Virus record (IMG/VR): IMGVR_UViG_3300003323_001224
Location: 12,639-76,638 of that record
Source of the DNA: a virus
Length of the DNA: 64,000 nt
Reading direction: 5' to 3' (one strand)
Shown here: piece by piece, positions 4,972 through 57,524 of the stretch
How the letters are laid out: each line of letters starts with the position of its first letter
Position numbering within the stretch: position 1 is the stretch's first letter
The notes under the pieces: generated by a model
The model's input: the letters and a program-made list of their open reading frames with translations, nothing else
Told to the model about the DNA's origin: nothing
Database searches by the model: none
Translations under genes and position numbers: made by a program

Positions 4972-4975
4972 GAAG

Positions 4976-6874
4976 ATGGCACTTAATGCGAATGAATTTA
5001 TTTTACCCGGTTTTGGCGGCGGCGATCCAGCTGCCGCGCTCCAGACCTTCGGCAATAAGCTGTATTTGAGGAATATGCAGGCTGAGCGACTTCGCCTTGC
5101 TAAAGAAGGTAAGCGTCAACAGGCTGGCAAGTTCCTAGAGGACTACCTTTCACCTAAAGACTATTTGACGGGAACCGCCTATGATCCGGTCATCAACCAG
5201 GGATTACAAGCTGCATTACAGCACGGGGCTGCATTAGCTGAGCAGGGGGCGGATATACCGCAGCTGTTGACGCAGCTTGGCCCCATGATGGGGCAGATTA
5301 CTGAGTACAGTACAAAAGCAAAAGCGATCAATAGTCAAATTGACAATCAGATTAAAGAAATGCGGGCCATGGGTTATGCGGGTCATGACTATATGAAAGT
5401 GGCGGACATGGCCCGTAAAATGGCCTTTCATCAGTTCGACCCAAATACGGGACAAGATGTAGGGCTAAATGAAATTTCCAAGGTTGACCCATCGGTAAAT
5501 TGGGTGCAACGTGCAATTCAGGAACATCCGGAAGAGGTGACAACGGCTGAAGGGCTAGACCAGTATGTGAAGAATTATCCGCAGGTAAAAAACTCTACGG
5601 ATGCAACGACTTATACGCCTAGTGGACAAATGAGTCGGAATAAAGTGAATCTCGTTGGACAGGGCTATTTGCAACCGGAGGTAGATGAAAGAGGAGTTGT
5701 AACAGGGTTAGTGCCCGCCTACGAGCATGCAACAGATCAGGGACAACCTATTTTGCACGACTTCGTAAATAATGAAGGCAAGCATGTAACTGCTCCTGTC
5801 CGTTTATTGGATGAGGGATACTTCAATGAAGCAGTAAGTCATAAAGGCATCGGCGATTGGCTGAGAGGACAGGTCAAACAACATCTTAATGAATACCAAA
5901 CACGCACCGGTCAGCCTATAGACATGAATAGCGTGCAAGCGCATCAGGTAGCGAGGGCTATAATGTACGATGAACTGAAGCGCCGCTCTCCCGGCAGCAT
6001 CCAGTACCAGGATGTCATTGGTAAACCCAGCGCCGCGCAGGTTCAACTGAACACGTTTGGCGATAAGCGGCAGCAGGCATACGACAATACGATGGGGAAA
6101 ATGGATGCTTATAATGAATTGGGCATCCCTTACCCTGGAGCGACAAAGAGTGAAAAACCTTTGAATCCCATTGAGACAATACACCAGTTGTTCAAAAATA
6201 ATGAAAACTATCTCACAGGAGATTTTGAAACAATTAATGGCCATGACGTGATAGATGTAACACCGAATTTCAAAGGGGGGCTTTTCAAATTTGGAAAAGG
6301 GCAAAGTGGAACTTACTCTCATGTTTACTTTGACCCACGTCGTCGTAAATTAATGTTAGAAGACGCTGAGGGGGGTAAGATTGTCGAACAGGGCGAACAA
6401 GGGTTAAAGGAATTCGCTAAGAAAATTGCAGCTGTGAATAATGTAAATCCAGATGTTGTAGATCCAAGCTTTAGAAATGCTGGGTATAACAATAAAAATC
6501 AGACATATTCGAATACAGATTTGCCTGCTGCTATACAACAGCGATATACAGATCTTGCAAATGAAAGAGAAGCGAAAATAAATAAGAGTATTGATGATTT
6601 TATAACCAATAAAAATTGGGATGCCTTGAAGGGGATTAAAACCCCTCAAGGAAAAATCACAGATGTCAGTAGCGCATGGTATGGCGGTAAGTACAAAATA
6701 GAATATAAGGACAAGAATGGCACTACACAGGTAAAGCGAATTAAAGATAAGGCAGAGCTTGAGCAGTTTATTAAGGGAACAATAAGCACTTCTCAACCAG
6801 CAACCGCAGTAAAATCGGATAGCACATCCAAAAAAGAACCTTCGGATATAGACCTCATTAATAAATATCGGTAG
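4976..6874 (+). CDS. Putative internal virion (ejection) protein
   Basis: 632-aa ORF between the pilot-like gene and the very large gene. Confidence 0.45.
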   Translation: MALNANEFILPGFGGGDPAAALQTFGNKLYLRNMQAERLRLAKEGKRQQAGKFLEDYLSPKDYLTGTAYDPVINQGLQAALQHGAALAEQGADIPQLLTQLGPMMGQITEYSTKAKAINSQIDNQIKEMRAMGYAGHDYMKVADMARKMAFHQFDPNTGQDVGLNEISKVDPSVNWVQRAIQEHPEEVTTAEGLDQYVKNYPQVKNSTDATTYTPSGQMSRNKVNLVGQGYLQPEVDERGVVTGLVPAYEHATDQGQPILHDFVNNEGKHVTAPVRLLDEGYFNEAVSHKGIGDWLRGQVKQHLNEYQTRTGQPIDMNSVQAHQVARAIMYDELKRRSPGSIQYQDVIGKPSAAQVQLNTFGDKRQQAYDNTMGKMDAYNELGIPYPGATKSEKPLNPIETIHQLFKNNENYLTGDFETINGHDVIDVTPNFKGGLFKFGKGQSGTYSHVYFDPRRRKLMLEDAEGGKIVEQGEQGLKEFAKKIAAVNNVNPDVVDPSFRNAGYNNKNQTYSNTDLPAAIQQRYTDLANEREAKINKSIDDFITNKNWDALKGIKTPQGKITDVSSAWYGGKYKIEYKDKNGTTQVKRIKDKAELEQFIKGTISTSQPATAVKSDSTSKKEPSDIDLINKYR

Positions 6875-6880
6875 TAGCAA

Positions 6881-9800
6881 ATGGCAGAAGAGGAGATTAT
6901 AGCATCCCCAGAAGAAGAGCAGCAAGTCGATGACCAGCCTCAAGGCCCTGGTCCAGGCCCTCAATTACCTGAAGCTAATCAAAGGGAGCTGGCCAATATA
7001 ATACGAAAGATGCAGGCGGATAATATTCCGGACGATAGGATCAAGTCAGTTGTGCATACTTACTATAGCAAATATGCAACAGCCCCTATTGAGCAACCGA
7101 ACTATAGACAGATCCCCCGAGAACAAAGACGCCAGGAGGGCGTAACTCCCACTCAGCAAACTGAACAGCGCTTGGATATCAGCCAAGATCCGAACGCTGT
7201 CGCCCGCAGGGAACGATATGGTAACATGCGCAAGCAGGCCATCCAGGAAATAGAAAGTCCCGAATGGCAGAAAAAGATATTTGGGGGCGAAAGACCCGCA
7301 TTGACAGATTATCCGGATATGCCCGTGCAGGCTTTTCAAAAAGTAAATCCAAAAGCGCTGGATGAGTATCTCAATACGGTTGATCTCGACCCTGCTAATA
7401 AATATTGGCTACGCAATCAGCTATTAAATTATGGTAAGTTCCGCCAGTCGCAATTTTATGTTGAGCAAAGAGCAAAGGCAAAGATTGACGCTATGCCGGA
7501 AGCCGATCGTAATAATGAGGTGCTTGTCAATAAGGCCTATCAACAAGCTTCTCAAGAATTTGACAAGCATGAGACGGATGCGATAGCTAATAGGCTTAAT
7601 AATATCGGCCTGGATGACAGACCGCTGCGAGGTTCATCGCCCTTTCACGATCAGATCACCGGGGCTAACAAGGCGCTTATGGGGGTTATGAATTATGCTG
7701 CTGACTTGGGACAGCAGGTAAGCTCCATCTTGGAGCTGGGGCATGTGCCTGGATTAAGCGATTTAGGGTACAAGCTCAAAACAACTGCTGATAATCTAAA
7801 AGCCAAAAATGAAATTCCGCAAAATGGGGAAGCAGGGAATTTACTTGCTGGAGAAATTCTTCCCATGGCGTTGGATATGGAAGCGCTCCGTAGGCTAACG
7901 GGAGCAGCGGGAAGACCATTATATCGTTCACTAGCGGGAGCAAGAGCTTCCGGGACATTAGGCAAATTCGCCGAGGGGGCTTTAGGAGGGGTGGCGGTAA
8001 GCCCCGTGAATAGTTATATCATCGCCCATCAATACTATAATGATCTGGTTAAAAACGGGGAAGAGCCTGGCAAAGCGGCTACGAAGGCCGATCAGCTGCT
8101 GGGTAAAAACCTGGCGACGGACATGCTAATGACGCCATTGCAAATGGGCTTGTTGAAAATACCGGCAGGAAACTGGATTAAGAAAGCATTGCTCGTTGCT
8201 CCAGCTGAAGGGGTTGTCGCCGGCACCCATTTCACTTTACAGGATTTCAATCAAAAGAGCACAGAGAATCCGGCCATGCATATCATGGATTACCTGGGAA
8301 ATGGAGAATGGAAAAGTCCTTTCATAACTGGCGCAGCTTTGGGAATGCTCCAGAAGAGCGCTGTCGATGCGATGGAAAACTGGAGTGTGAATTCCGAAAG
8401 CAGGAATATGTTTTCGTTTGGTCGCCAATATGGCGGCGATGTGCGCCGTAGTCTCCCCAGCAATGAAACGATAGCGAACAATGTACTTGCCGCTATGGAG
8501 ATAAAAGATGTGCCTAGAAGGACCAATGAATTAAAGGAGCTTACCAATACGTTGCACGAAGAGGGCATCTACTCCAAGAAAGAACTGGACATTGTTGATG
8601 GGATTATAGATGATGTGAGCGCCGTAAAAGATAAGGTGCCAAAATTTGGCTCACCGCAGCAGCGAATGGCGGTATTTAATGAATTACTCAACATCCATTC
8701 TACAGAGAAATTTCTTGCTCAAGCCGGAAACGAGGCGGGCGAAAAATACATTAATGAATTCAATAAAGCAAGTCAGGCCCGCATTCAGCGCATTTTAGCC
8801 GGTGAAGAACCATTGTATTTTATTAACGGCAATGAAACAAACAAAGAGCAATTGTTAAGAGCATTGAATGAAAACCCGGAACTACTCGAAAGCAAAGGTG
8901 TAAAAATTGATATTCATAACGACCCTACTACGATAAAGCAAATTGAACAATTAAAAACGGAAAGAGATGCCATTCAAAAGCAAAGCGCAACAGCGCCTGA
9001 TGTTCGCCCTGCATCCGACAATAGCGAAGCGATGGGCGGACGAAATGAAGGCGAACGGCCAGTCGATCAAGAAGCTGCCGGAGAAGAAACAGGAGAAGAA
9101 GAGCTGAATAAAATGCCTGGAGCAGATAAAGTCGCTGAAGAAATAGACAGCGGCAAGATTACCGATGATGACCTGTTACGCACTATACAATCGTCTATCA
9201 ATGAAACACAACAATCATTACAGGAACTTCCTGAAGGCGCTCCAGCAGAAGCCGGAGGTGATCAAACTAATGGAGGGGTTGGACAGGGAAGCGAGACGGA
9301 GGGTGCTGCATCAGTCCTTCCTGAAACTGGCGAAAGGGCAACACCTGGAGACCAGGATACAGGCACCGAACCCCTATCCAGTGATACAGGCACCGCAGAC
9401 GAGGCTGGGGTAGTACAAGAGGCGGGCATGCCATCCGCCTACATTCCGGAGTTTTATGAACAGGATGTAAAACCAACACTCAAAAACATCTCTGAGAATA
9501 TTAGCGATGCCTATAACCTACTGAAAAGGGCCTATGATCCTCGTGCCGGTGTTTCAGAAAAGGCGTTGACGCATATCATGAAGGCGCTGGGCGATCGCAA
9601 CCACGTTATGGCGATAATGGATGCCGGAATGCGCTCTTTTGAAAAGATGTTTAATAAAATGCCTGATCAGGATCGGATCGATTTTATTGATCGCATGAAG
9701 CGCGGTGTGCCACAGGCGACGCCAGAGCTGGATAAAGTGGCAAAGCTGATTCGCGGGTTGGATGACGCGCTGTATTCGGAGCTAAATAAATTCAAGGCGA

Positions 9801-12022
9801 ATATACCATGGAAAGAAAATCACTTTCGGGTATTATGGAAAGAGATCCCTGGTTCAAAAAGCGGGAAAGAGCAATTCTTTACTGGTAACCGGCCATTTGA
9901 AGGCAACCGTGGCTTTATGCACCGGGCCACGCTGGCGGATATGTCAGAGGGGATTAAGCGAGGTGGTGTACCTGTGTCAACCAATCCTATTACCATGTTT
10001 AAAATAGCCTACGCGGATGGCATGAAATACATCACCGCGCAGCGCATGTGGGAAGGTTTGAAAAAGGATAAGCTCGTAAAATTTGTTCGGCTGGGGCAAG
10101 ATCCGCCAGAGGGATTTGTTAAGCTCAATGATCGGTTGGCGAATGTGTACTTCCGCACCCCTGGAGAACAAACATTGCAGTCAGCTCCAGCAGCAAATGC
10201 GATGCCGCATAAACCAGGAACAGTAATACCCATACCTGAAGGCCATGCTGTTTATCAAGGGCAGCTCCATGAAGTTGAATACAAGCCGGGTGTAGGACCT
10301 GTGAAAGCTGGTGAATATTGGATCGACAAAGGTGCCGGCAGGCTATTGAATAATTTTCTTTCGCGTGATCATATTCGAGAAACCCGTATAGGCCGTGGTC
10401 TAATGGAGATCAAAAATCTTTATACAGCAGCTGAATTGGGATACAGTGGCTTCCATGCACTAGCTGAAGGACTGGAAGCGATAGGCTCACAGATCGGCAC
10501 CGGCATTCGTAAAATGGTTAACCTCGGGGATTTTAAAGGTGGGGTGAAAGACATCATTACGTCGCCCGCTTCGTTGAAAACAACAGCCTCCTTAGGGGCA
10601 AGAGCGATAAAATATGCAACGAGTGAACAATTCAGGCAATCCAAAATGGGACAAGAATTCCTTCGGAGGATGCCTGACATAGATCAATACATCGATGATA
10701 TGTTCCAGGGCGGTGGATTATTGAAACAGCATGAGGATTTTCAAGCCAAAACAAAAGAGATTTTTCAAGAACAGTTTAATAAAAAAAATTATATCGGAGC
10801 TGCTGTACGGGCGATTCCCGCTATCAATGATCTGGTAATGAGTCCACTTTTTCAAATTTACATTCCACGCCTTAAAGTTGGCATGTTTATGAAAGAATTC
10901 CCGCTAAGACTTCAGGAAAATGCCGAAAGATTAGCAAAGGGAGATGTTACCCGGCAGCAGCTGGCGCGAGAAACAATTGATTTCGTTGATGACCGATTGG
11001 GCGAAATGAATTTCGATAACCTTTTTTGGAATAAGACGTTCAAAACTGCTCAACAATTCTTTTTACGTTCAGTTACGTGGAAATTGGGTTCTATTAGAGC
11101 CATAGGTGGGATATTACCAGAGCAATTTCGCGAATTCAAGGCAGCGGCGGATGAGGGGCGGAAACCCAAATTAATGCCAAAAGCAGCTTGGGCCTTGGGC
11201 CTCGTGACGATGCAAGTAGCTTTAGCTACGCTCATTCAACATATGCTTGCGCATAAAGATATCGAATCGGGAACAGATCTCGTAGCGCCACAGATCAATC
11301 CGGATGATCCTACTGAAAGAACAGTATTGCCGACCTATATTAAAGACTTCCTCCACATCTATCATAGCGCCACGTCCAAAGATAAACTTAGCTACATTAC
11401 CTCATCGACAGCGGGGCAGCTCAGTAAACTGTATGACTTATGGCAGAATAAAGATTTCTATGGATATGAAATACGGGATGCGAATGCAGGCTTCTTAAAG
11501 CAAGCGGAACAATCGCTGTTATATGTAGCCCCTAAACCTTTTTCCGCCTCTTCTACCTACGAAATGATTAAAAGTGGCGAACCCTGGAGCAAGGCACTTC
11601 TCAGTTTTGCTGGTCTACAAAAAGCACCTGGGTGGTTAACCCACACCGATCTTGAAAACAAGATCATGGAATTGTACGGCGAAAGAAATGCTGGCACGAA
11701 GCCTTATAATGAAAGGGAGGCAAACCAGGTAAAGAAAGAAATTAGGCAATTATTCAAAGAGGGGGAGAATGATGCGGCTCACGAAAAACTGGATCAGGCA
11801 ATTAAAGGAGGCATTATCCGTAGGTCACAAGTTAAAAATCTCGTGCAATCTGCTCGCAAGAGCGGGGACGCCTCTCAATATTTCTTTTCCCGCCTGCCTT
11901 TTGACGATAAACGGGCTTTATACGAAGACATGAACGAGGAAGAAAAAAAGATCTACGACCCGAAAGGCAAACTAAAAGCACAATTGGAACAATTGCAACG
12001 CGATAAAGAAAAAGAAGAATGA
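6881..12022 (+). CDS. Large internal virion / ejection protein
   Basis: 1713 aa, helical, with Gly/Ala-rich segments and an acidic linker; podovirus ejectosome position. Confidence 0.55.
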   Translation: MAEEEIIASPEEEQQVDDQPQGPGPGPQLPEANQRELANIIRKMQADNIPDDRIKSVVHTYYSKYATAPIEQPNYRQIPREQRRQEGVTPTQQTEQRLDISQDPNAVARRERYGNMRKQAIQEIESPEWQKKIFGGERPALTDYPDMPVQAFQKVNPKALDEYLNTVDLDPANKYWLRNQLLNYGKFRQSQFYVEQRAKAKIDAMPEADRNNEVLVNKAYQQASQEFDKHETDAIANRLNNIGLDDRPLRGSSPFHDQITGANKALMGVMNYAADLGQQVSSILELGHVPGLSDLGYKLKTTADNLKAKNEIPQNGEAGNLLAGEILPMALDMEALRRLTGAAGRPLYRSLAGARASGTLGKFAEGALGGVAVSPVNSYIIAHQYYNDLVKNGEEPGKAATKADQLLGKNLATDMLMTPLQMGLLKIPAGNWIKKALLVAPAEGVVAGTHFTLQDFNQKSTENPAMHIMDYLGNGEWKSPFITGAALGMLQKSAVDAMENWSVNSESRNMFSFGRQYGGDVRRSLPSNETIANNVLAAMEIKDVPRRTNELKELTNTLHEEGIYSKKELDIVDGIIDDVSAVKDKVPKFGSPQQRMAVFNELLNIHSTEKFLAQAGNEAGEKYINEFNKASQARIQRILAGEEPLYFINGNETNKEQLLRALNENPELLESKGVKIDIHNDPTTIKQIEQLKTERDAIQKQSATAPDVRPASDNSEAMGGRNEGERPVDQEAAGEETGEEELNKMPGADKVAEEIDSGKITDDDLLRTIQSSINETQQSLQELPEGAPAEAGGDQTNGGVGQGSETEGAASVLPETGERATPGDQDTGTEPLSSDTGTADEAGVVQEAGMPSAYIPEFYEQDVKPTLKNISENISDAYNLLKRAYDPRAGVSEKALTHIMKALGDRNHVMAIMDAGMRSFEKMFNKMPDQDRIDFIDRMKRGVPQATPELDKVAKLIRGLDDALYSELNKFKANIPWKENHFRVLWKEIPGSKSGKEQFFTGNRPFEGNRGFMHRATLADMSEGIKRGGVPVSTNPITMFKIAYADGMKYITAQRMWEGLKKDKLVKFVRLGQDPPEGFVKLNDRLANVYFRTPGEQTLQSAPAANAMPHKPGTVIPIPEGHAVYQGQLHEVEYKPGVGPVKAGEYWIDKGAGRLLNNFLSRDHIRETRIGRGLMEIKNLYTAAELGYSGFHALAEGLEAIGSQIGTGIRKMVNLGDFKGGVKDIITSPASLKTTASLGARAIKYATSEQFRQSKMGQEFLRRMPDIDQYIDDMFQGGGLLKQHEDFQAKTKEIFQEQFNKKNYIGAAVRAIPAINDLVMSPLFQIYIPRLKVGMFMKEFPLRLQENAERLAKGDVTRQQLARETIDFVDDRLGEMNFDNLFWNKTFKTAQQFFLRSVTWKLGSIRAIGGILPEQFREFKAAADEGRKPKLMPKAAWALGLVTMQVALATLIQHMLAHKDIESGTDLVAPQINPDDPTERTVLPTYIKDFLHIYHSATSKDKLSYITSSTAGQLSKLYDLWQNKDFYGYEIRDANAGFLKQAEQSLLYVAPKPFSASSTYEMIKSGEPWSKALLSFAGLQKAPGWLTHTDLENKIMELYGERNAGTKPYNEREANQVKKEIRQLFKEGENDAAHEKLDQAIKGGIIRRSQVKNLVQSARKSGDASQYFFSRLPFDDKRALYEDMNEEEKKIYDPKGKLKAQLEQLQRDKEKEE

Positions 12023-12612: not shown

Positions 12613-14616
12613 ATGTATTATCCCATTGAGAACGGGACCGTGGAGGTCATACAGGACTATCCCTGTCAACTGCCCCCTGTTGGCTATGGAAAGAATAGGC
12701 TGACGGGCGAAGTGGAATACGTAGGTATTGTAAAGACCGATGCAAAGAAGGAAAAACAAAAATGGAAAAGGTTTGAACTGCCGAAGGATTATGAGAAGAA
12801 AAAGAAACAGGAAGAGCAGCGCCAAAAGGAAGAACCAGATCATTATAATCCTGACCTGGAAAAGATCCGGACACAACATTGGAAATACCGCCTCTGCGGT
12901 TTTTGGTTATATATAAATGGCATACCGACCTACATTCCGCCGTCCTATTATATGTATCTGCAATGGTGCCCGCTGGATATTGGTTACCCGGCTTATCGTG
13001 ATACGGATAGGAGATTTTTTTATGTATGGGAATATTGCGTGGAAGATCCGCGCTGTGCTGGTCTGATTGATATTGAACGCCGACGGATGGGAAAAACCTA
13101 TAAGAGCGGGTCTATATTACTAGACAGAACATCGATAGCCAGCCACCACCACGGCGGTATACAAAGCAAGACAGGACAGGATGCCAAGGCGGTCTTTTTA
13201 AAGACAGTAGTTCCGTTTTTTAAAAAATACCCTGATTTCTTTCGGCCAGTATTTGATCAATCCAAGGGTATGTCACCGACCACTGAGCTAAGGTTTTTTC
13301 AGACCAGTATTAAAGGCAAACGCGCCAGCGAGATCGTCGATGCGCCTGAATTGGAATCATGGATTGATTGGGGAACAGCAGAACCTTTTCATTATGACGG
13401 ATCGAAGTTGAATACTTATGTGTGCGATGAATTTGGCAAAACCCTTGAATCGAGCGTTGTTGACCGTTGGGATGTAGTCCGCTTCTGTTTAGATCAAGAT
13501 GGAGATTGGTGCGGTAAAGCTCTCTTTACTTCTACAATAGAAGAGATGGAGAACGGCGGGGTAGATGCGAAAAAATTATGGGAAAATAGCAATCCCGCTG
13601 ATAGAAATGAGAATGACAGAACCAAAACAGGACTATACAGATTTTTCTTACCTGCATACGAAACGACATATTTTGATGAATATGGTATGCCAGAAGTTGA
13701 GAGAGCAAAAACTTTCTACCTGAATGAACGGGCGGGCTTGGTGAAGGACCCAAGACAGTTGTCATCTATCATTAGAAAGAATCCTTTCTCGATTGAAGAG
13801 GCATTTCGAATCGATGGAGATACGTGTTTATTCGATGCGATGAAATTAAATGATCAACTGGATTTTTTGTCCTGGCGAGAGAACATAACAGAACGTGGAA
13901 ACTTCGAATGGGAGAATGGAGAACGTTACACAAAAGTGGTTTGGAAGAAAAATGCGAACGGTAGATTTGAGATGCCTGTCGGTTTTCATTTCGACAATCC
14001 AAACGAAGTAAAAAAGATTAATGATCAGTTTATACCCCAGAATAATGTTCGGTTTGTATGCGGATGCGACCCTTTTAAATATGACCGCGTAAAAGATCAG
14101 CGCCGTTCCGATTGCGCGGCATTTGTATTCCAAAAATTCTCCCCAGGAGATGATACGTTTAATGATTCGTTTGTTTGTAGATACAAACATAGGGCACCAA
14201 CCACGGGCATGCAATATGATGATGTCATTAAGATGTGTTGGTATTTCGGCTGTCAGTGCCTTTTTGAATGCAATATCGATAACTGGAAAGAATATTTTAG
14301 GAATGCACATTGTTGGGCATTCCTGATGATCTTACCTGGAGAATCAGATCCGGGTCTTTACGCCGATGGAGGCGGTAAAACCCATCAGCTAATATGCGAC
14401 TTGACTGAAGATTATATTGATAAGAATATTAAAAAGGTACTGTTTAAAGCGATGATTGAGGATTGGTTGCTGTTTAAGTTGGACAAGACAACCGACTTCG
14501 ATGAAACCATGGGCGCCGGCTATACATTGATTGCAGCTCGAAAGAAGCTCTACAGAAAAAATGGAGATATCCAGCGTGACCTGACAGACTTTTTCAGAAT
14601 TTATAAAGCAAGTTAA
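12613..14616 (+). CDS. terL: Terminase large subunit
   Basis: Walker A-like RRRMGKT, Walker B YVCDEFGK, nuclease motifs CGCDPF and DFDETM. Confidence 0.9.
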   Translation: MYYPIENGTVEVIQDYPCQLPPVGYGKNRLTGEVEYVGIVKTDAKKEKQKWKRFELPKDYEKKKKQEEQRQKEEPDHYNPDLEKIRTQHWKYRLCGFWLYINGIPTYIPPSYYMYLQWCPLDIGYPAYRDTDRRFFYVWEYCVEDPRCAGLIDIERRRMGKTYKSGSILLDRTSIASHHHGGIQSKTGQDAKAVFLKTVVPFFKKYPDFFRPVFDQSKGMSPTTELRFFQTSIKGKRASEIVDAPELESWIDWGTAEPFHYDGSKLNTYVCDEFGKTLESSVVDRWDVVRFCLDQDGDWCGKALFTSTIEEMENGGVDAKKLWENSNPADRNENDRTKTGLYRFFLPAYETTYFDEYGMPEVERAKTFYLNERAGLVKDPRQLSSIIRKNPFSIEEAFRIDGDTCLFDAMKLNDQLDFLSWRENITERGNFEWENGERYTKVVWKKNANGRFEMPVGFHFDNPNEVKKINDQFIPQNNVRFVCGCDPFKYDRVKDQRRSDCAAFVFQKFSPGDDTFNDSFVCRYKHRAPTTGMQYDDVIKMCWYFGCQCLFECNIDNWKEYFRNAHCWAFLMILPGESDPGLYADGGGKTHQLICDLTEDYIDKNIKKVLFKAMIEDWLLFKLDKTTDFDETMGAGYTLIAARKKLYRKNGDIQRDLTDFFRIYKAS

Positions 14617-21437: not shown

Positions 21438-22682
21438 ATGGCAGATCTGTCACAATACATATCTATTGCTGTAGTGTTGGACAAAAGCCAACCAAGCCCC
21501 ATTTTTCGTATTGTTGATAATAGCAACTATCCGCTGGGTGTGGCGCAAACGATTGCGGGGATCTTGAGTGTAACCCAGCCAGATAATATTACCATTCAGA
21601 ATACGGATTTCTCACAGCCAGATATATACTGGAATACGAGTGCCCTCGTACCTGCTGATCTTGAGCTGAGATTAGATAATACGGGCAGCTTCCAAAGAGG
21701 AGGCAGCGGCTATCGTATTATTTATACAGTTCGGGCGCCTGGGTATGATGATACTATTTTGACGAAAGTCTTTTCGCTTTCTTACACTCCTCCTGCCATT
21801 GTCATCACCAATAATTTTGATATATTCACGCCGGATCTATCCGTCCAAGATAGCACCAACTACAACCAATTATCCCTAGATTTTATTTCCGTTGTCAGGG
21901 CGTGGTTAGCGAACATTATTTCTGTTGAAGGCACCACGCAAATCATCAGCGGGACCGATCAGGTGTTCGATCTCAATTATCTTGGGAGTTACTACGACTC
22001 CCAATATGATATTACCCTATCCATCACTCCTCAATGGCGCTTACAGGGGACATCCAATTTTGTTACGATCATCGATGAATTGGCCGATGACATTACGCTC
22101 TATGCGCAAATACCGCCTTCATTAGCTGACCTACAAGTAGACCTTGCGACACTCAAAAGTGAACTTGATGCAGCAGTCTGTGATTGCAATTTATACCGCA
22201 TATTGTTTGATCGATACAATTTAGCTAATTCCATCTATTCGCAATTGGTGGCAAGAGGACAGGCAGGGTCGTTGTCTGGATTGGATGTATATATATATCA
22301 ACTGGAAAAGATTTTCAATAATAATGTTAACCCCACCTATGAAAACACGAATGAGATAATTCCGGCTTATGACTGGAATACCGGTGGCGGAGGCAGTGTG
22401 GCTTGGACCAATATAACCGGAAAGCCCAGTTCTATCACTGTTGAATGGGTCGTCGGGCAAATGGGGTATCCTGGTGAAGGGGCGACTACTTACACGAATA
22501 CTAATATGGTCAATGTACCCGTAAGTAGGATTTATGTTTTTCGAAACGGATTTCCGCAATTCTCCTCCAATCCGCCAGATGGAGACACCTATTACACTAA
22601 GAATCTTGCTGATAACTTCCTGACTTTTTCGGTAGCGTTGGGTCTAAACGAAAAAATTATCATACTCATACTTCCTCTATAA
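21438..22682 (+). CDS. Putative virion structural protein
   Basis: 414 aa, acidic and beta-rich, with a VAWTNITGKPS fibre-type repeat motif. Confidence 0.5.
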   Translation: MADLSQYISIAVVLDKSQPSPIFRIVDNSNYPLGVAQTIAGILSVTQPDNITIQNTDFSQPDIYWNTSALVPADLELRLDNTGSFQRGGSGYRIIYTVRAPGYDDTILTKVFSLSYTPPAIVITNNFDIFTPDLSVQDSTNYNQLSLDFISVVRAWLANIISVEGTTQIISGTDQVFDLNYLGSYYDSQYDITLSITPQWRLQGTSNFVTIIDELADDITLYAQIPPSLADLQVDLATLKSELDAAVCDCNLYRILFDRYNLANSIYSQLVARGQAGSLSGLDVYIYQLEKIFNNNVNPTYENTNEIIPAYDWNTGGGGSVAWTNITGKPSSITVEWVVGQMGYPGEGATTYTNTNMVNVPVSRIYVFRNGFPQFSSNPPDGDTYYTKNLADNFLTFSVALGLNEKIIILILPL

Positions 22683-29357: not shown

Positions 29358-30806
29358 TTAAAATTTCCTTGAAAAATCATGCTCCATATTTCCTAGCATA
29401 AGGCCTAACCCATCCTTTAAATATTCTTCCGTCATGCTGGGTGTAGCATGCCCGCAGTATTGTTGGATAAGCGCAATAATAACCCCCCCCATGTACATAT
29501 GGATGCAGCGGGTATGCTTCCAGGAATAATTAGTTAATTTAGGTGAAAATCCTCCAGGCTCCCGTACTTCATCCCTGAATTTGTCGCTAAAAAAAGCGCG
29601 ATTCGTAGGGACCGGTCCCGGTGGCCCATCTATACCAAAGATGTAGTAGTGACCCGGACAATCCTTTAAACCCATTCTGATAAAAAGTTCTATCAGTTCC
29701 GGTTCCATGTGAATGAATCTGCCGCGCCCCTTTTTTGCCTTTTCGTCGGGAATCATTAATTTATTTCGACCCCAAAGAATATTTTCCACTTGTAAGTTAC
29801 GTGTTTCCTTATCAGGCCGGGTGCCCGTGTAGTATATTACCTCACTAAAATCATGCAGGTATTTTCCCCAATAAGGGACAGCCAGAATTGCCTTTTTCAC
29901 AGCCGGTATGATACTATCTTCAAAAGGAGTATGCCTGATCTTAGTTCCCTTCCTCATCAACTCGACACCTTCAGCAGGGCTTTTGCTTATAATCTGTAGT
30001 TCGTCTTTACAATAATTAAAAAATGTAACAAACTTTTTTACCTTATCATTGTATGTCAAAGGCGCCCATTCCTTTTCCTCTCTCTTTGCCGCGAGAAAAT
30101 CTTCCAGGTCATCTTGCGTGAAGGTCGCAATATCATCATACCACTGGCTTTCTTCCAATAGCGTATTTTTAGCTATATGCTTTTTCAACAAATTCAAGGG
30201 CACTGCATATGACTTTCGGTTCACTTCATCATAGTGTTGCAAAAAAAGCTCACTGGCCGCATTCAAGGTAATGACCTGCTTTTTAGCTTTCTTTTCTGCC
30301 TCTTGTTCGGCTAAGATCCTATTATACTCGTCTATCTCATATTGGAATGGGCTGAAGCCATTCTCTAGCTCTTTAAGCATGGTGGCCAACAGCTGGAGCG
30401 CAAATTCAGGGTCCTGCGCGACTCCTTTGAAAACGCGAAAACGTTCCCATTCTCCCGGCGCATTGTGTCGCTGTTGCAATACGGGCGGTAGCCCAGGAGG
30501 CACCTTAAAATAGTATTCAATATACTTTTTCTTCCCCTCAACGAGCTTGGGCGGTTTCCAGGTTATGTATTTTCCCGTTGACACTTTTTTGGCAATTTCC
30601 TTTGTCAAAAATACGAACTTTTTGATTTTCAGGTCTTTGTTTTTTTTAGGGTTGATCGCGTGTATCAACTCGGCATTTTCGACTTCCGGAGTATTGCTGA
30701 TTTTCAGCGCTTTAGATTTTTGCATGGTGATCTTTTTTAGGCGATTTTGGCAATTTTTTGACAATTTTTCTGAGCCAAATCTACATCGAATTCGCCATTT
30801 CTGCAA
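29358..30806 (-). CDS. int: Tyrosine recombinase / integrase
   Basis: YYTGTRP (R), KAK (K), YSWKHT, CGHA, TEEY (Y); SAM-like domain upstream; true start probably downstream of 30806. Confidence 0.85.
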   Translation of the reverse strand: MQKWRIRCRFGSEKLSKNCQNRLKKITMQKSKALKISNTPEVENAELIHAINPKKNKDLKIKKFVFLTKEIAKKVSTGKYITWKPPKLVEGKKKYIEYYFKVPPGLPPVLQQRHNAPGEWERFRVFKGVAQDPEFALQLLATMLKELENGFSPFQYEIDEYNRILAEQEAEKKAKKQVITLNAASELFLQHYDEVNRKSYAVPLNLLKKHIAKNTLLEESQWYDDIATFTQDDLEDFLAAKREEKEWAPLTYNDKVKKFVTFFNYCKDELQIISKSPAEGVELMRKGTKIRHTPFEDSIIPAVKKAILAVPYWGKYLHDFSEVIYYTGTRPDKETRNLQVENILWGRNKLMIPDEKAKKGRGRFIHMEPELIELFIRMGLKDCPGHYYIFGIDGPPGPVPTNRAFFSDKFRDEVREPGGFSPKLTNYSWKHTRCIHMYMGGVIIALIQQYCGHATPSMTEEYLKDGLGLMLGNMEHDFSRKF

Positions 30807-30833: not shown

Positions 30834-33102
30834 GTTGTGAATTCCTTTTAAAATTGAACGCTCAGTAACTAGAATACAAACTGATGTTCAACCTTTACTG
30901 TTGTAATTACATTTACAAAAAGTGCATTCAACATTGATACATATTACGGCAAGCAACATGAATGTTGTGACTTCCTTTTCAAACATATTATTTAGGGAGG
31001 GCAATAAAATAAGATGGATTATAAAGCATTATAGTCGTACTATCCTTAGTACGCTACTAAGCTTGCGTTGTGACTTCCTTGTTCAGTGGTTCAATATCTT
31101 GCGATCTTCTCTAAAAAACAACAGTCAATGAGTGGCCAAAACTCTGGCAGTTGTGAATTCCTTTCAAAATGGATTTTCCTACAACCCAAGCTGCGTAGGT
31201 AAACCTTCCTGTTGTTGTGATTTCCTTTTAAATAGATGCAGCCTACAATTCCCCTTCAACTAACTTTCAAAGCCATATAACCATTTTCTCGTTGTGATTT
31301 CCTTTTAAATAGATGCAGCCTACAACTGGTGAGTAGGTTGTTGTTTCCGAGGAGCAGTTGTGACTTCCTTTCAAAATTAAGCTTCCTACAGCCAACCTCC
31401 TCTATCCTTATATTCCTGAGTTGTTGTGACTTCCTTTCAAAATTGAGCTTTCTACAACAAATGCTTAAAATTGGATTCCATAGCCATAGTTGTGAATTCC
31501 TTTCAAAATTAAGCTTCCTACTACTGGACAGGGCCTGGGGTAACAGGACATAGGTTGTGATTTCCTTTCAAAATTAAGCTTCCTACAAAGTATAGCTTTT
31601 TGGATATTTTTCACGGTAGTTGTGACTTCCTTTCAAAGGAAAGGTTCTTGCAACTTTCATAGGTGGGGTTTACATTGTTATCGAGTTGCGACTTCATTTC
31701 AAAAATTGAGGTTGATACAAATGGCGCCCCTGGACAAGTTCTTTGTCACCGTTGTGACTTCCTTTCGAAATCAAGCTTTCTACAACCCTAGCCCACATAG
31801 GCACGGGATACCATTGGTTGTGACTTCCTTTCGAAATTAAGCTTTCTACAACTCATTAATCCTGCCTCCGCTTATCGTTCCTGTTGTGAATTCATTTCAA
31901 AATTAAGCTTCCTACAACAATTATGGCAAATATATATAACGACTCCTAAGTTGTGACTTCCTTTCAAAATTAAGCTTCCTACAACCCCTGGCGATTAACG
32001 TGACGTCCCATTAATGTTGTGACTTCCTTTCAAAATTAAGCTTCCTACAACCAAACAATGTCATACTTTTATAATTAACTCGTTGTGACTTCCATTCAAA
32101 ATTAAGCTTCCTACAACTAAGTTCACGAACATCATATGAAGATAGGAGTTGTGACTTCCTTTCAAAATTAAGCTTCCTACAACCAGCCGACGGGCGGCTA
32201 TTTAAATAGGTTTGTTGTGACTTCCTTTGAAAATAAAGCTTCCTACAACAGTCAGCCCAATTATAAGAGATACACCTATGTTGTGACTTCCTTTAAAAAT
32301 AAAGCCTCCTACAACTTACCAAAACCAGTGACAACAACGGGACGTGTTGTGACTTCCTTTCAAAATTAAGCTTCCTACAACAATGTTCGATCATTCCTTT
32401 TTTGAAAGTACGTTGTGACTTCCTTATAAGCTTCCTACAACCGGCGCATGGCATGGGTACGCAAATGAAGTGTTGTGACTTCCTTTCAAAATTAAGCCTC
32501 CTACAACACATCAGCAGCGCAGATACCGGCAATTGCCGTTGTGACTTCCTTTCAAAATTAAGCTCCCTACAACAAAAATGAAAAAGGTTTACAATGTCTC
32601 GTAGTTGTGACTTCCTTTCAAAATAAAGCTTCCTACTACGGTCGATGTTTTGATAAGTCATCACTCATAGTTGTGACTTCCTTTGAAAATAAAGCTTCCT
32701 ACAACTGTTGTGAGCAACTACGTATAGGCGTGCTCTGTTGCGACTTCCTTTAAAAATAACCTTCCTACAACAGCGTGCCCAAGATCAGCTACGACGCCAA
32801 TGTTGTGACTTCCTTTCAAAATTAAGCTTCCTGCAACCAGCAACCAATCCTCAATCATTGCTTTGAAGTTGTGACTTCCTTTCAAAAATAAGCTTCCTAC
32901 AACAGGACCTGATAACAGGCCACACGACATTACGTTGTGAATTCCTTTCAAAATTAAGCTTCCTACAACCGAGATCCTTTTCACGTCAAACGACCAGCAG
33001 GTTGTGAATTCCTTTCAAAATTAAGCTTCCTACAACAGGCCCAGTCCGCTCCCGTCCGTCAGCCGCGTTGTGAATTCCTTTCAAAATTAAGCTTCCTACA
33101 AC
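30834..33102 (-). CRISPR. CRISPR array of about 34 repeats (30 clear from 31150, 4 degenerate), 36-nt repeat, mostly 30-nt spacers
   Basis: + strand repeat GTTGTGA(C/A)TTCCTTTCAAAATTAAGCTTCCTACAAC with ~66-bp period; degeneration towards 30834 puts the leader at the 33103 side. Confidence 0.97.
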
Positions 33103-33281
33103 CTGTTTCGCTAGAAAGCACACCTCTCCTGCATTACAGCCTATATTGTCACAATAAAAATGCGAAACATTCTCGAAAAAATGAGAATAATAAATTAAAA
33201 AAAGGATTCAGGAGTGCTTCACGGCCTCCCGCTCAGGACGTACAACCGCCCCCTAATATTTTCAAAGAACTTGATGAGATT
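33103..33281 (-). ncRNA. Leader plus candidate guide scaffold/tracrRNA
   Basis: About 80-nt GC-rich segment ending in a T-run just after the cas gene stop, then an AT-rich leader. Confidence 0.4.
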
Positions 33282-34376
33282 TTATTGTATCAAAAGTTCA
33301 ATCCCAAACTTTTTGCATTTGTATTGTATCATGTTTATCAATCCATGATACGACCAGTTTCTTAACAAGAACTGATTTTTTGGATCTTTCGCTTCCTCCT
33401 CTTTCTCCTTCTGATCAACGAGAATCAATTTGCCGCATCGATATGCGACGCACAAATCTACCAATTTCTTACTATAACTGTGCAATTTGGTCTGCACATA
33501 ATGTCTTTCTTCTTCAGAGAAACGTTCAGTGGCTTGCAGCTTCCGTTTTCTACCTTTGCCTCCTTTGTTGAACCGAGCGGCTCTTTGCGCTCTTCTTAGT
33601 CCCTCTTGTATACTAATTCTACCGTATAAGAACTCATCTTTGGTCCCGATGGATAATTCCTTTCTATTTACTTTGGCCACAATAGGTACATCCAGGCTGA
33701 GAGAAGCTGTCATAGCAACGTCCACATCCAAAACTACTGGTTTTTTTTCAATTTCAAAGACTGCTAATAAAAAAATTTTCTTTTTCTTCAACTGTATAGA
33801 ACTATCGCAAAGAGAATGTATGCCTTTCAAAGCTTCCTCCATCAGCAACCGGTTATTGCTAAAGTCATAACCGAAATGCGTTCGAAACGGAATGCCCCAC
33901 ACTTCAAATTTGTAATTTTCGCTGTCTTCAGATAAAGACCAATTGCGCATAAGAATAGTTGGCAGCGGCATTGGAATGTCTCGGCGATAGGTTCGCAAAG
34001 CGCGCTTTCCGGAAAAATATTCCTTCCGCTCCTTGCTAATGTTTGCTGTGACGAGGTTGTTTATCGCAGAAACACTTGCCATTGGCGCCTCGCCCTTGAA
34101 CTTTTTTGAATTTACCTGGTAGGTTGTATTGGGACGGCTCGTAGTTAATATCCCCTCTTCCGCTTTAATTCTATCCTTCAATGTGATTTTGAAATCATCA
34201 TGAAGATAAAAGAATTCGGAAATATTTTCCTGAAAATATTGATGGGTGGCCGTGTGGTTAGCAGCCCTAAATATTATTTCATTCCATTTGCGCAATTTTG
34301 CATAATTATCTTTAAACTCTTTTTTATCAGAATCTATAAATAATTGAATTTTTCTTGTTATGATATTTTTAGCCAT
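33282..34376 (-). CDS. Cas12f/TnpB-family protein, predicted nuclease-dead
   Basis: ITRKIQL N-terminus, CDSSIQL, GGKGRKRKL, H.YSKKLVD and LRNWSY..L..MIQYK...GI Cas12f motifs; RuvC-I (TASLS) and RuvC-II (LILVD) lack catalytic D/E; ends before the Zn finger and RuvC-III. Confidence 0.8.
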   Translation of the reverse strand: MAKNIITRKIQLFIDSDKKEFKDNYAKLRKWNEIIFRAANHTATHQYFQENISEFFYLHDDFKITLKDRIKAEEGILTTSRPNTTYQVNSKKFKGEAPMASVSAINNLVTANISKERKEYFSGKRALRTYRRDIPMPLPTILMRNWSLSEDSENYKFEVWGIPFRTHFGYDFSNNRLLMEEALKGIHSLCDSSIQLKKKKIFLLAVFEIEKKPVVLDVDVAMTASLSLDVPIVAKVNRKELSIGTKDEFLYGRISIQEGLRRAQRAARFNKGGKGRKRKLQATERFSEEERHYVQTKLHSYSKKLVDLCVAYRCGKLILVDQKEKEEEAKDPKNQFLLRNWSYHGLINMIQYKCKKFGIELLIQ

Positions 34377-35387: not shown

Positions 35388-35390
35388 GGG

Positions 35391-35484
35391 TGCGGAGGGG
35401 AGGATACGAGCCCCCACGAAATTAACCTAGAATAAATTTCCATTCATTAGACTGAATGCCGTCTACCAGTTCCGGCACCTCCGC
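35391..35484 (-). tRNA. Atypical Leu-type tRNA with CTA in an irregular anticodon loop (pseudo-tRNA or suppressor)
   Basis: GCGGAGGTGCCGGAACTGGTAGACGG 5' half, long variable arm, CATTCA-GTCTAA-TGAATG, deviant T loop. Confidence 0.55.
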
Positions 35485-35499
35485 AAATCCAATACTTTA

Positions 35500-35820: not shown

Positions 35821-36612
35821 TTATTTTCCGTGAATATATCCAAAGATCTTTTCAGCTGTTAGGCCAGACTGTACAACTTCAACTTCATTGGCTTTTGCCA
35901 AAGCCTCCCGCACTGACTCCTTAAGTTTACTAAGCCTATACAACATTGCCGCTCTATCGCGATGGGAAATCTCACCGGAAAAATGCTGTACTGTCTGCAT
36001 CCCCAAAACGACTTGCGTATCCTTAGAAGCTATTTGAGGCTTATAACCAGATCCATCCTTTAGCAGTTGAATATTTGGATCGGGGAGAATGTATGATTCC
36101 TTCAAGGTAGTTCTATTGGCACTTTCGAAAACTTCTGTTTCCCAAATATTTTCTGACTTCATCTCGCTGTCGTTGGATCGCACCCATTTGATATCATCTC
36201 TCCGGACAGGTAGCGTTTCGTACATTTTTGATAATTCTTTCGAATCCAAAAATGACCGCAAGCGCAAAAGTTCAAGTGTCGTATACTTCCCCCAATCTTC
36301 GCCATCAACAATAAGATTGGCGGTCGCTTTGCCGGTGGCATTTGTCGCCTCAATGGCAAACAAATTTGTTATGTGATCGCCGCAGGTGTCCAGAAAATAT
36401 TTGAGATACTCCGGCACTGAATTTTGTACCGGTTTGAATCCCCTTTTCGAAGGTTCATCTAAGTAATCGCCTTCTGCTTGATAAGTTTGCCGCACTCCCA
36501 CGAAAATTTGGGACTTATGCTTATCAGCAAAAGTGGCTACATATTCCTTCAGCAATGCATTGTACTGAGTACCTGAATGTTCTGTTTTGGCAAGCAAAGC
36601 ATTTTGTTTCAT
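35821..36612 (-). CDS. Conserved hypothetical protein directly upstream of the ncRNA
   Basis: 263 aa from MKQNALL (the longer ORF start overlaps tRNA-Lys); ANLIVDG..ELL.L..LP and FSGE..RL.KLK..V..A..KAN motifs. Confidence 0.7.
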   Translation of the reverse strand: MKQNALLAKTEHSGTQYNALLKEYVATFADKHKSQIFVGVRQTYQAEGDYLDEPSKRGFKPVQNSVPEYLKYFLDTCGDHITNLFAIEATNATGKATANLIVDGEDWGKYTTLELLRLRSFLDSKELSKMYETLPVRRDDIKWVRSNDSEMKSENIWETEVFESANRTTLKESYILPDPNIQLLKDGSGYKPQIASKDTQVVLGMQTVQHFSGEISHRDRAAMLYRLSKLKESVREALAKANEVEVVQSGLTAEKIFGYIHGK

Positions 36613-36630
36613 AATCCTTTTTTTTAATTG

Positions 36631-36703
36631 TTCCGCAACCACGGATCGAACGTGGCACTCCCTGCTTAAAAGGCAGGTGCTCTAACCACTGAGCTATTGC
36701 GGA
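36631..36703 (-). tRNA. tRNA-Lys(TTT)
   Basis: CCTGC-CT-TTT-AA-GCAGG, GTTCGATCC. Confidence 0.85.
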
Positions 36704-37222: not shown

Positions 37223-37432
37223 TCATTTATCCAAAAACGGTATCCCTGACTTTATCTCCATATGTATATGGTATTGCAATTGTGTTTTGGCTGAATTAAT
37301 GATCTTGCCCGCCAACTGGCTAATGTGGCCAATCTCTTTCACATTTACCTGACCCTTTCTAGCTTGCTCATAATACGACAATAGATCTTCTCTCAGATCG
37401 GTGATACCAATAATTTTTTCAGGGTGTTCCAT
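37223..37432 (-). CDS. Hypothetical protein
   Basis: 69 aa, AGKIINSAK.QL.Y motif. Confidence 0.5.
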   Translation of the reverse strand: MEHPEKIIGITDLREDLLSYYEQARKGQVNVKEIGHISQLAGKIINSAKTQLQYHIHMEIKSGIPFLDK

Positions 37433-55076: not shown

Positions 55077-57524
55077 GAAAGCAAATCGCAGGTTATATTA
55101 AGAGCAAGAGAAGCAAGATAAAAAAAGAGAGGACGTCCGTTGTCCTCTCTTGCTCTAATCAAATGCCCCTCAACCATTAAACCTTATCCTATTAGACTTC
55201 TAAGATAAATAAGTGGTTGCACATAAAAAAATCTTTTTTGAACCTATTAACAAAAAAATACGTGTTTTAATTTGGTTAAAACAAATGTTTTACTACCTTT
55301 ATGCCAGATCATTGAAAGACGGGCCATTCAATTGGCGGGACCGCAACCCTGTATCAGGCATGGGCTGTTAGTGGTTATATGACTCTCTCTCAGGTGTTTC
55401 TACATCTATTTACCAGGATCATATAGCTGTTACTCGCAAGAGCTGATAATTCGATTCTTGTTGCACACTGTCCGCACGGACAGCAGGCGCACCCTGGTCA
55501 TACATAGTATGGCACACGGATAAGACGGCAAGGCAGGGAGTAACGCGGTTACACGTTCAGTATAGTATGTCACGGGACATATGTATGCCGCCAATTCGTG
55601 ATTGGTGAACGTGCTAAAACTATTCAATATGAAAGCAATATTCATAATCGTAACACTAGCCATCTTTATCACCGGCTGTTCAAGCAAGCGAAAATATCGT
55701 ATACTCGCTACACAAAAAACGATTTACTACGTGCATTCAAAAGTAATTATAAACGAGTATGACAACGGCTTCAAAGCGGGGGACACGGTAAGATATGACT
55801 ATAAATATGATGGATATGTTCCTGAAAGCTATACTGAAGTGATACTTTCAGGCCTCTAACCCCTCACTGTGTAGGCAGTCTGTCCGGCTCATGACTGGAC
55901 AGGGGTGCTAAAACTATTTATTATGTCTTACTCTATGCTCACAGAAGAACAGTCAAAGAACATCGAACGATTAGCAGCTATACATAAGGCAATTGTCGCA
56001 TTGAATGAAGCTATATTAATCAACAGTGCGGATTGCTCCGCCACTATGGTCAGGGAAACGGTTATTAGTATGGCTGAAAGGAGAAGGGCAATGGATGCCA
56101 GATTCAAGGATGTTAGGGAATATTAAAGGCCCTGACAATCGCTTAAACGGGGTCTAGCCTTACCTAGACCCCGTATATCTCATCCACAAGGGTTTAAAGC
56201 CCGCTATCCTGGTGCAAGGTCCGGGGATGGATGCTAAAACTTACGACTATGTATACTATCAACGGCGCTAACTATTTCACAGATAAAGAATTCCGGCAAG
56301 GTGCTAAAGAGATGACCAACCGGCAATTGTTAAGGGATTATAGGTTGTCAGTAATACATCTGGCCGAATTGGAAGAAAAGAAGGCCAGCGGCTGGGATAC
56401 CTATCTGGGTGATAACATCATTGGCCGTATCTCACAAGAGAAAAAAAGCCTTCGTGCTACGGAGAATGAATTGGTAGCGCGCGGTTATGATCTTAGTAAA
56501 ATCGTCATCAAATAGCAATCATATGAAATCCTATCGTTTAAAAACCCTGGCAATGATGTTGACGTACGTTGCCCTTTTGTTGATCGTATCTATTATTGTG
56601 TATGTGAGCAGCCCCCGCGGCTGCCATTTGTTTTAGGCTATCGTAAGATAGCGTCCTTCCCTTAGCACAAGGGTAGTGCACTGGACTGAGCACCGGGGGT
56701 AACGGTTCGACTCCGTTATGGACGGCTCAACAACAATCAGTACCATGTCAAATGTTATCGCCAAGATCGAAAAGAAAGATGACATCGAAGTATTAACCGT
56801 TACGTTGCCGATCAGCAAGCGGCCAAGCGCGTCAGGTAAGACGATGATCATAGCCAGCACGAACGGCAACCAGCCGTTAAGCATTACCATTGACGGTAAG
56901 CGGGTCATCCTGGGATTGAATGCCTATATAAAGTAGGCACTCACTTGTCTCTATACGTTAAGGGTAGACGGCCACATTAATATGTGGTAGTGGCGTAGTC
57001 GAGTGCGCTTAGAGACCTCAACAAATTGCAATTATATGAATGTTCACATTACCATGTTTCACGAACGTGTGGAACAATTTAAAGCGCAATGGCCTATGGC
57101 AACTGTTGTAAAGGTAGGCAGGTATTACACCACCTATGCGCTGCCAAAGAAGTTATACGAAAAGGTGTATCTCCATGTAATGGAATACGGTTCAATCGAT
57201 GCACCAGCATGTATTAACTACGTGAAGATAACGGGAATAATGGGGGATCAACCGCTAAAACTGTTTATCAAAGAAAAGGATTGCAACAAGGTTTTAGAAC
57301 GGCTAGTAAAAGCCCATAATGATAAGCAGTTAACCTATCCGGCGCAACCCTTCCATGTTACCATGAAAAAGGTCCGAATAGAAAGGCATCGACGTAACAG
57401 CGTAGAGCACATTGTACTGAAGTCTATGACGGCAATTGGTTTTGCTGCATAGCTGGCAGGCTGTAGGGGTAGCAATACCGCCCGTCCTTCGCTGGACATA
57501 CAGCCCTCAACAAATTGTAATTAT

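Follow-up and report, generated by a model that had tools for sequence, protein, structure and literature searches.

A nuclease-dead Cas12f gene beside a candidate tracrRNA and a CRISPR array on a phage: a probable RNA-guided, non-cutting system aimed at related phages

Results

The stretch of DNA analysed here (the window, 64,000 nucleotides) comprises bases 12639-76638 of the 76,638-bp IMG/VR virus record IMGVR_UViG_3300003323_001224, a phage from root metagenomes whose completeness is given as 100% by CheckV. Its minus strand carries, in this order, a dcas12f gene encoding a nuclease-dead and C-terminally truncated Cas12f (33282-34376), a compact scaffold RNA of about 60 nt that resembles a trans-activating CRISPR RNA (tracrRNA; 33187-33258), an A+T-rich leader read from the sequence (33103-33186), a CRISPR array (30834-33102) and, directly downstream of the array at the lysogeny end, a tyrosine integrase gene (29358-30806; Pfam Phage_integrase, E 8.3e-10). 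Besides the integrase, the phage genes in the window include those for a portal, virion structural proteins and a primase/polymerase. An earlier note on this DNA, made from the letters alone, had taken the phage to be temperate, and the integrase adjoining the array argues for this.

The 364-amino-acid product of the dcas12f gene is a member of the dCas12f family, as is evident from its full-length homology, its lost RuvC residues and the scaffold RNA downstream of the gene. A phmmer search against PDB aligned residues 7-363 with residues 9-364 of entry 9n9c, "Nuclease-deactivated Cas12f" (365 amino acids; E 1.4e-91), and the family profile was matched at E 1.5e-151. The protein also matched NCBIfam guided_TnpB at E 6e-14 (profile positions 80-338 of 389, so that the C-terminal part was unmatched), Cas12f2 (NCBIfam) at E 1e-4, and the structures of active Cas12f at E values from 1e-34 to 3e-7. 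In the alignment to active Cas12f (9nzo/9nzr), the position of the RuvC-I Asp is occupied by Ser225 (T223-A-S-L-S227 against G-V-D-L-G) and that of the RuvC-II Glu by Val320 (L317-I-L-V-D321 against I-Q-M-E-R). The C-terminus, residue 364, aligns opposite about residue 416 of the active enzymes of 506-508 amino acids; from there the active enzymes run on for some 90 residues, while the window protein ends just past the strand preceding the Zn finger, and both the Zn finger and RuvC-III are missing. An active RuvC nuclease with a Zn finger, which would be expected of a type V-F effector, is therefore absent. This comparison with Cas12f and dCas12f had been proposed by the earlier note, and it bears out the note's description of a Cas12f/TnpB-like open reading frame (ORF) that reads TASLS at RuvC-I and LILVD at RuvC-II, where catalytic residues are expected, and that stops before the Zn finger and RuvC-III.

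More than 500 homologues are present in the protein collection, almost all of 360-370 amino acids and from Chitinophagaceae, Sphingobacteriaceae and Flavobacteriaceae. Since the length of about 365 amino acids is kept and the RuvC positions are non-catalytic throughout the family, the truncation is a family trait and not an artefact of assembly. The closest homologues are P0002 (89% identity) and P0003 (67%), and a metagenome scan detected no relative above 51% identity. Entry 9n9c is the dCas12f of Flagellimonas taeanensis, which is part of a sigma-E-coupled RNA-guided transcription system and forms a dimer that binds both guide RNA and DNA (PMC13472631; 10.1101/2025.06.10.658880).

Between gene and array, all array-linked loci have a conserved element that is about 60 nt long. 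In the window it consists of a first hairpin with a GUUGUA loop, a second hairpin and a GAAUCCUUUUUUU tail, and its last bases are seven consecutive U. When 11 loci are aligned, 95% of the cells of the two hairpins are paired and 6 of the 11 pairs change on both sides, giving a covariation score of 0.62, compared with 0.18 for shuffled alignments and at most 0.13 when the partners are slid by 1-3 columns. Folding of the single sequence gives the same two hairpins, but these are not unusually stable (z = -1.06), and support for the fold therefore rests on the covariation. Within each locus, the six bases of the hairpin-1 loop are complementary to the repeat's last 5-6 nt, and the two change together from locus to locus (GUUGU/ACAAC, GCUGU/ACAGC, GUUGC/GCAAC and GUUCG/CGAAC). 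When this pairing was scored over the 11 loci with free sliding, with Watson-Crick pairs only and with the same freedom granted to the permuted controls, 62 of 66 positions were paired; permutation gave 51.8 +/- 2.3, and the observed value was reached in 1 of 20000 permutations. Furthermore, a CCUU in the tail past hairpin 2 stands opposite an AAGG of the repeat. Because the loop covaries with the 3' end of the repeat, the conserved element is, judged on its sequence, a compact tracrRNA, which ties the array to the RNA beside dcas12f. The locus thus has the arrangement expected of type V-F systems in one respect, namely a Cas12f-type effector adjoining an array with a tracrRNA.

A covariance model of the element matches directly 3' of dcas12f in phage, Puia-type and sigma-E loci, and its matches include loci outside the set from which it was built, for example the sigma-E loci L039, L079, L120 and L029. 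The phage tracrRNA is therefore the counterpart of the 5' part of the fused single guides of the sigma-E systems. A scan with a sigma-70-type promoter model, which is ill-suited to Bacteroidota promoters, found no excess over chance, and the same scan called no terminator at the U-tract of the tracrRNA. Several dCas12f phages or elements contain two to four tracr-like copies, each followed by a mini-array of its own (L015:9582-15711, L138:11149-11954 and L004:11116-12875).

In the CRISPR array a 36-nt repeat (minus strand: GTTGTAGGAAGCTTAATTTTGAAAGGAAGTCACAAC) occurs about 30 times; 29 spacers could be read, and the array ends in degenerate distal remnants. It is made up of 28 full 36-nt repeats, one repeat with a 6-nt deletion, one that is badly degenerate and 3-4 remnants of the 3' half that reach position 30834, a total of about 30-34 units. 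Spacers are mostly 30 nt long (range 28-31, with one of 41). The first repeat (33102-33067, minus strand) begins 179 nt past the dcas12f stop codon and on the same strand; the earlier note had put about 34 repeats at some 180 bp from the ORF, which agrees with this count and distance. While 26 repeats differ from the consensus at three positions or fewer, the distal third of the array is degenerate, and because repeat decay grows toward the integrase end, the leader is placed at the gene-proximal end. The leader-proximal repeats at 33067-33102, 33001-33036 and 32934-32969 read GGAATTC and most others GGAAGTC; the AATTC form pairs better with GAAUCC in the tracrRNA tail. Across the array-linked loci the repeats are homologous (read along the gene's direction, GTTGTA...TTTGAAAGGTAnnnACAAC); they have 36 nt, the spacers about 30 nt, and their orientation relative to the gene is the same. 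The window repeat was not found in 401 Chitinophagaceae genomes with up to three mismatches allowed, and a search of IMG/VR for an exact 22-mer of it gave nothing.

Three of the 29 spacers are near-copies of the phage's own genome (27-28 of 30 positions); none of them is perfect, and the 26 others have no match in the phage. Spacer 4 (32838-32867, minus strand) matches the phage's own large-terminase-like gene at 28 of 30 positions. Its protospacer (14443-14472, plus strand; 5' flank CTG) lies inside ORF 12613-14616, relatives of which were recovered as terminase genes next to a portal gene, and it is mismatched at guide positions 3 and 9, each a third codon position. Spacer 14 (32184-32213, minus strand), also with 28 of 30, has its protospacer at 60626-60655 (minus strand; 5' flank CTG), antisense to the 3' end of ORF 60040-60651; here too both mismatches, at guide positions 11 and 20, fall on third codon positions. 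Spacer 21b (31655-31684, minus strand), which lies behind a degenerate repeat, matches at 27 of 30 positions a protospacer inside ORF 21438-22682 (22315-22344, plus strand; 5' flank TTT), with mismatches at guide positions 3, 8 and 14. In all, six of the seven mismatches of these three spacers are on third codon positions, and the spacer sequence is on the coding strand at two of the protospacers and on the template strand at one. We estimate that far less than one such self match would be expected by chance. Since the mismatches show the pattern of divergence between related phages, not that of spacer decay, the self-like spacers appear to have been taken from close relatives of the window phage.

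A second phage with a dCas12f, the complete record L007 (77.6 kb), which is unrelated to the window phage, has one spacer matching its own genome at 29 of 30 positions. The match (L007:5760-5789, L007:7574-7603) lies about 150 bp upstream of the start of its dcas12f gene, in the preceding ORF of 110 amino acids; it could serve autoregulation, or it could target the same locus in relatives. Over the four self matches, three in the window and one in L007, six of eight mismatches are in guide positions 1-14, the positions that form the R-loop in the solved homologue (10.1101/2025.06.10.658880). We read this placement as a sparing of self.

Searches with the array gave no match in INPHARED phages or PLSDB plasmids, and in 201 Chitinophagaceae genomes they gave only repeat-like matches to type II-C arrays and no protospacer. 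The protospacer of spacer 4 was absent from the IMG/VR relatives of the large terminase, TerL (80%, 76% and 43% amino-acid identity; best match 19 of 30); these nearest terminase relatives are too distant.

To place the locus within its family, the contexts of 26 viral, 80 genomic and 35 metagenomic loci were scored; the viral loci were recovered by an alignment-based scan of IMG/VR, in which a single-protein query matched none. A gene for a 268-amino-acid sigma-E lies directly upstream of dcas12f at 78 loci, and a true array lies downstream at none of these 78. The opposite combination, no sigma gene and an array directly downstream, is found in the window, in nine IMG/VR loci (including L004, L005, L007, L010-L012, L015 and L016) and in the metagenome contigs L115-118, L124, L135 and L138, and all of these have the gene, the scaffold RNA and the array in that order on one strand. 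No homologue of the 268-amino-acid sigma factor was found upstream of the window dcas12f. The module thus recurs in at least nine other IMG/VR contigs, most of which are shown to be phage: neighbours of the other viral dcas12f genes are phage genes (tape measure, large terminase, RecT, RecE, SbcC-like), three of the other viral records with dcas12f are complete according to CheckV, and one is classed as a provirus. The search for homologues beside arrays that the earlier note had suggested was therefore positive.

In a maximum-likelihood tree, rooted on longer and probably active relatives and omitting two-thirds of the sigma-E rows, proteins below 340 amino acids and duplicates, the sigma-E-linked proteins group together as a derived clade (SH-aLRT 99). 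Outside this clade lies the window protein, which has a long branch and whose exact sister is not fixed by the tree; its place is in a basal grade, along with the array-linked phage proteins and a Puia-type group adjoining an RND efflux gene. In Puia dinghuensis (L033), the dCas12f gene has no sigma-E gene, lies directly after a gene for a 1085-amino-acid RND-type efflux protein (4706-7963) and is followed by a response-regulator-like ORF (9197-9871), with the scaffold RNA right after the dCas12f gene. This locus is probably the efflux-linked cluster mentioned in PMC13472631.

With regard to the remainder of the phage, the whole 76,638-bp record gave no profile match to Cas1, Cas2 or Cas4, the adaptation proteins looked for as a mark of type V-F, and none to Sigma70_r2; the only related signal was a sub-threshold Sigma70_r4_2/HTH match. 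These results are in line with the absence of cas1, cas2, cas4 and a sigma factor reported earlier for the window. The large ORFs scanned proved to be genes of phage structure and replication; profiles of Cas9 and Cas13 were not part of the search. No conserved accessory protein adjoins the window dcas12f, and no neighbouring ORF is common to other dcas12f loci. About ten tRNA genes lie between 28588 and 56726 of the window, for two of which (35388-35485 and 56656-56726) ARAGORN left the anticodon undetermined; among the tRNA genes is that of a 273-amino-acid DUF7873 protein (35821-36642, minus strand; Pfam E 3.5e-31). An ORF of 69 amino acids (37223-37432, minus strand), 3 kb from the system, is 38% identical to an ORF of 67 amino acids (L005:3545-3748) that is placed between dcas12f and the tracrRNA and array of the phage locus L005. 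Public root-metagenome runs contain low-coverage DNA contigs identical to the window phage, and one such run contains a variant of the end of the dcas12f gene at about 88% identity; no RNA data set was among the public runs listed.

Discussion

The features described above are probably best explained, in our opinion and by analogy with related systems, by a working, phage-borne and nuclease-free derivative of a type V-F system that binds DNA under RNA guidance without cutting it and that is aimed at sibling phages. According to this model, the phage would express dCas12f, the tracrRNA of about 60 nt encoded just past the gene, and CRISPR RNAs (crRNAs) derived from the array, which has about 30 spacers. 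Each repeat would pair with the tracrRNA at two places, its last 5-6 nt with the loop of hairpin 1 and its AAGG with the CCUU of the tail. If the solved homologue of Flagellimonas is a guide, a dimer of dCas12f would then use the spacer portion, at the 3' end of the RNA, to form an R-loop on matching double-stranded DNA. With two RuvC residues replaced, and with the third missing along with the Zn finger, the complex is not expected to cut. The most likely effect of its binding would be a block to the transcription of the matching DNA, and perhaps to its replication or packaging. The main targets would probably be close relatives that superinfect the lysogen or co-infect the cell, because several guides are near-copies of the phage's own genes, and the mismatches within the first 14 guide positions would spare the phage itself. 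Prophages usually keep their exclusion and defence genes beside the integrase, and the position of the array fits this habit.

The earlier note had already proposed a CRISPRi-like system of this kind, probably for superinfection exclusion or competition between phages. This functional proposal gains support, at the level of sequence, from the covariation between tracrRNA and repeat, the recurrence of the module in phages and the sibling-like spacers. We infer by analogy the loading of RNA, the binding of DNA, the silencing (repression and not activation) and the ecological role.

Several observations weigh against the model. Firstly, the closest characterised relatives activate transcription and do not repress it. 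Secondly, no protospacer matching at 30 of 30 positions was present in the collections searched, and the real targets are thus unseen. Thirdly, the self-like protospacers do not agree in their 5' flanks (CTG, CTG and TTT in the window, ATC in L007), so that no target-adjacent motif can be defined. In addition, spacer 14 matches the genome of its own phage throughout a 10-nt seed, which makes some self binding possible. Finally, the source of the spacers is left without an explanation, given that cas1 and cas2 are absent.

The self-like guides might alternatively be regulatory, binding with mismatches to the phage's own terminase-like, structural and early-region genes, either to silence late genes in the lysogen or to time the lytic cycle. 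Three spacers match the phage's own genome at 27-28 of 30 positions, that of spacer 14 without a mismatch at guide positions 1-10, and the spacer of L007 with 29 of 30 points to a site about 150 bp upstream of its own dcas12f. Moreover, dCas12f of the sigma-E type needs merely 14-16 nt of guide, and with a dead effector self-targeting would be harmless. A regulatory guide would, on the other hand, be expected to be conserved and exact, and all four self matches are imperfect; the differences resemble synonymous changes between strains, their concentration in guide positions 1-14 (six of eight) has the look of self-avoidance, and the 26 other spacers have no match in the phage at all. We therefore consider self-regulation unlikely, and prefer to see in these guides sequences directed at sibling phages.

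A second possibility is that the phage dCas12f recruits a sigma-E of the host that has a dCas12f-binding C-terminal domain, and so directs RNA-guided transcription as in Flagellimonas. The protein is 45-48% identical to the sigma-E-linked dCas12f proteins and has the same truncated RuvC domain, which is the sigma-E docking site; two of the three self-like protospacers are oriented such that transcription starting downstream of the R-loop would read late genes in the sense direction. The Phe of the lid motif is conserved as well, but it is also present in active Cas12f and hence is not diagnostic. Against such recruitment stand the lack of a sigma factor gene on the phage, the branching of the protein outside the sigma-E-linked clade, and the mutually exclusive contexts, there being no true array at any of the 78 sigma-E-linked loci and no sigma gene at any array-linked locus. 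Taken together, this makes the recruitment of a host sigma factor quite improbable, and silencing by the bound complex itself remains the explanation that we favour.

The question of how spacers are acquired leads to the host. On the plus strand, the phage repeat matches 17 of the first 19 bases and the ACAAC end of the 47-nt repeats of long Chitinophagaceae arrays, one of which adjoins cas9-cas1-cas2 (L150:8331-15892, in the Chitinophagaceae genome G069). The orientation of the repeats relative to the cas genes is the same in L150 and in the window (e.g. the window repeat at 32016-32051, plus strand). Repeats of type VI-B arrays of Bacteroidota may look similar as well. It is conceivable that temperate Bacteroidota phages have an adaptive, non-cutting CRISPR system of their own that silences siblings and that obtains its spacers through the type II-C Cas1-Cas2 of the host acting in trans, an idea which we put forward tentatively and regard as possible but doubtful.

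The same likeness might be taken to mean that the array mainly serves effectors of the host, such as the type II-C Cas9 of Chitinophagaceae, as a hijack or decoy, and that its adjacency to dcas12f is incidental. This is very improbable, since the phage repeat has 36 nt and not 47, was not detected in the Chitinophagaceae genomes searched for it, covaries over 11 loci with the RNA beside dcas12f, and is part of a gene-RNA-array order that is kept in many phages. There is equally little to be said for a decaying relic, in which a captured type V-F locus would have shed its nuclease and adaptation genes and fallen out of use, as might be suggested by the degenerate distal third of the array and the missing cas1 and cas2: the ORF is intact, more than 500 proteins, among them a relative that is biochemically active, keep its length and motifs, 26 repeats remain within three differences of the consensus, compensatory pairing of the tracrRNA is kept, and the module is present in complete phage genomes.

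If the proposed silencing of sibling phages is correct, phages use nuclease-free, array-programmed CRISPR effectors, and RNA-guided superinfection exclusion or phage gene control would exist beside the protein-based forms. From a practical point of view, the system would offer a predicted natural DNA binder of 364 amino acids that comes with a helper RNA of some 60 nt and is natively multiplexed. The sibling-like spacers provide concrete targets, and the likeness to type II-C repeats provides a testable idea of how an array could grow without its own cas1 and cas2.

Comparison with known systems

Cas12m and Cas12c belong to other Cas12 lineages, are encoded by hosts and retain their RuvC site for the processing of crRNA. 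They confer immunity by binding DNA and not by cutting it (refs 22 and 23 of PMC13472631), and the window system would resemble them in the proposed mode only, that is, in array-programmed DNA binding that blocks transcription without cleavage. TldR proteins, which are direct descendants of TnpB and have a single omega-RNA-like guide directed against a host promoter (10.1101/2023.11.30.569447), are likewise nuclease-dead RNA-guided DNA binders of the TnpB/Cas12 type that regulate transcription; unlike the window system, they have neither a CRISPR array nor a tracrRNA.

With the type V-F Cas12f nucleases (9nzo/9nzr, 8hr5, 7wju/8j12, 7c7l/7l48), the window system shares the homologous REC/WED/RuvC core, 36-nt repeats ending in ACAAC, and a dual RNA in which the tracrRNA pairs with the 3' end of the repeat. 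It differs from them in its dead nuclease site, in the lack of the Zn finger and RuvC-III, in a much shorter tracrRNA (about 60 nt) and in the lack of adaptation genes. It should be noted that the adaptation module is present in many but not all type V-F loci.

The sigma-E dCas12f systems (PMC13472631; 9n9c) have in common with the window system the protein family (about 45-48% identity, about 365 amino acids), the dead RuvC site, the truncation and the two-hairpin scaffold after the gene. In contrast to them, the window system is encoded by a phage, has no rpoE or hth partner, and has a protein outside the sigma-E clade; it uses a separate tracrRNA and an array with 30-nt spacers, whereas the sigma-E systems use fused single guides of 85-105 nt with guide parts of 14-16 nt. 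Both the sigma partner and the fused short guides were looked for in the window and are absent, and the window system is thus not of the sigma-E-coupled kind. Because its nuclease is dead and yet a separate tracrRNA and a true array are kept, the phage systems may, if our interpretation is correct, be intermediates between cutting Cas12f and sigma-E-coupled RNA-guided transcription.

A close precedent comes from Hoffmann et al. (Nature 2026; PMC13472631, Extended Data Fig. 1a,b), who mention in passing a "distinct cluster" of dCas12f near CRISPR arrays and without rpoE, note for it a covarying RNA upstream of the array and suggest repression, without experiments. The examples given are bacterial loci (a Chitinophagaceae metagenome-assembled genome) directed against an efflux promoter; the text contains neither "virus" nor "viral" nor "mobile genetic element", and "phage" only in a reference. 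Full-text literature searches, whose coverage did not extend to subscription journals, found no paper on phage-encoded dCas12f arrays. The window system is like this cluster in being array-linked and rpoE-less and in having a covarying RNA between gene and array, and it differs in belonging to a complete temperate phage, in its roughly 30 spacers and in its sibling-like guides. While the protein family was already known, what appears from the sequence to be new is a dCas12f that is borne by a phage, programmed by an array, dependent on a tracrRNA and supplied with guides resembling sibling phages.

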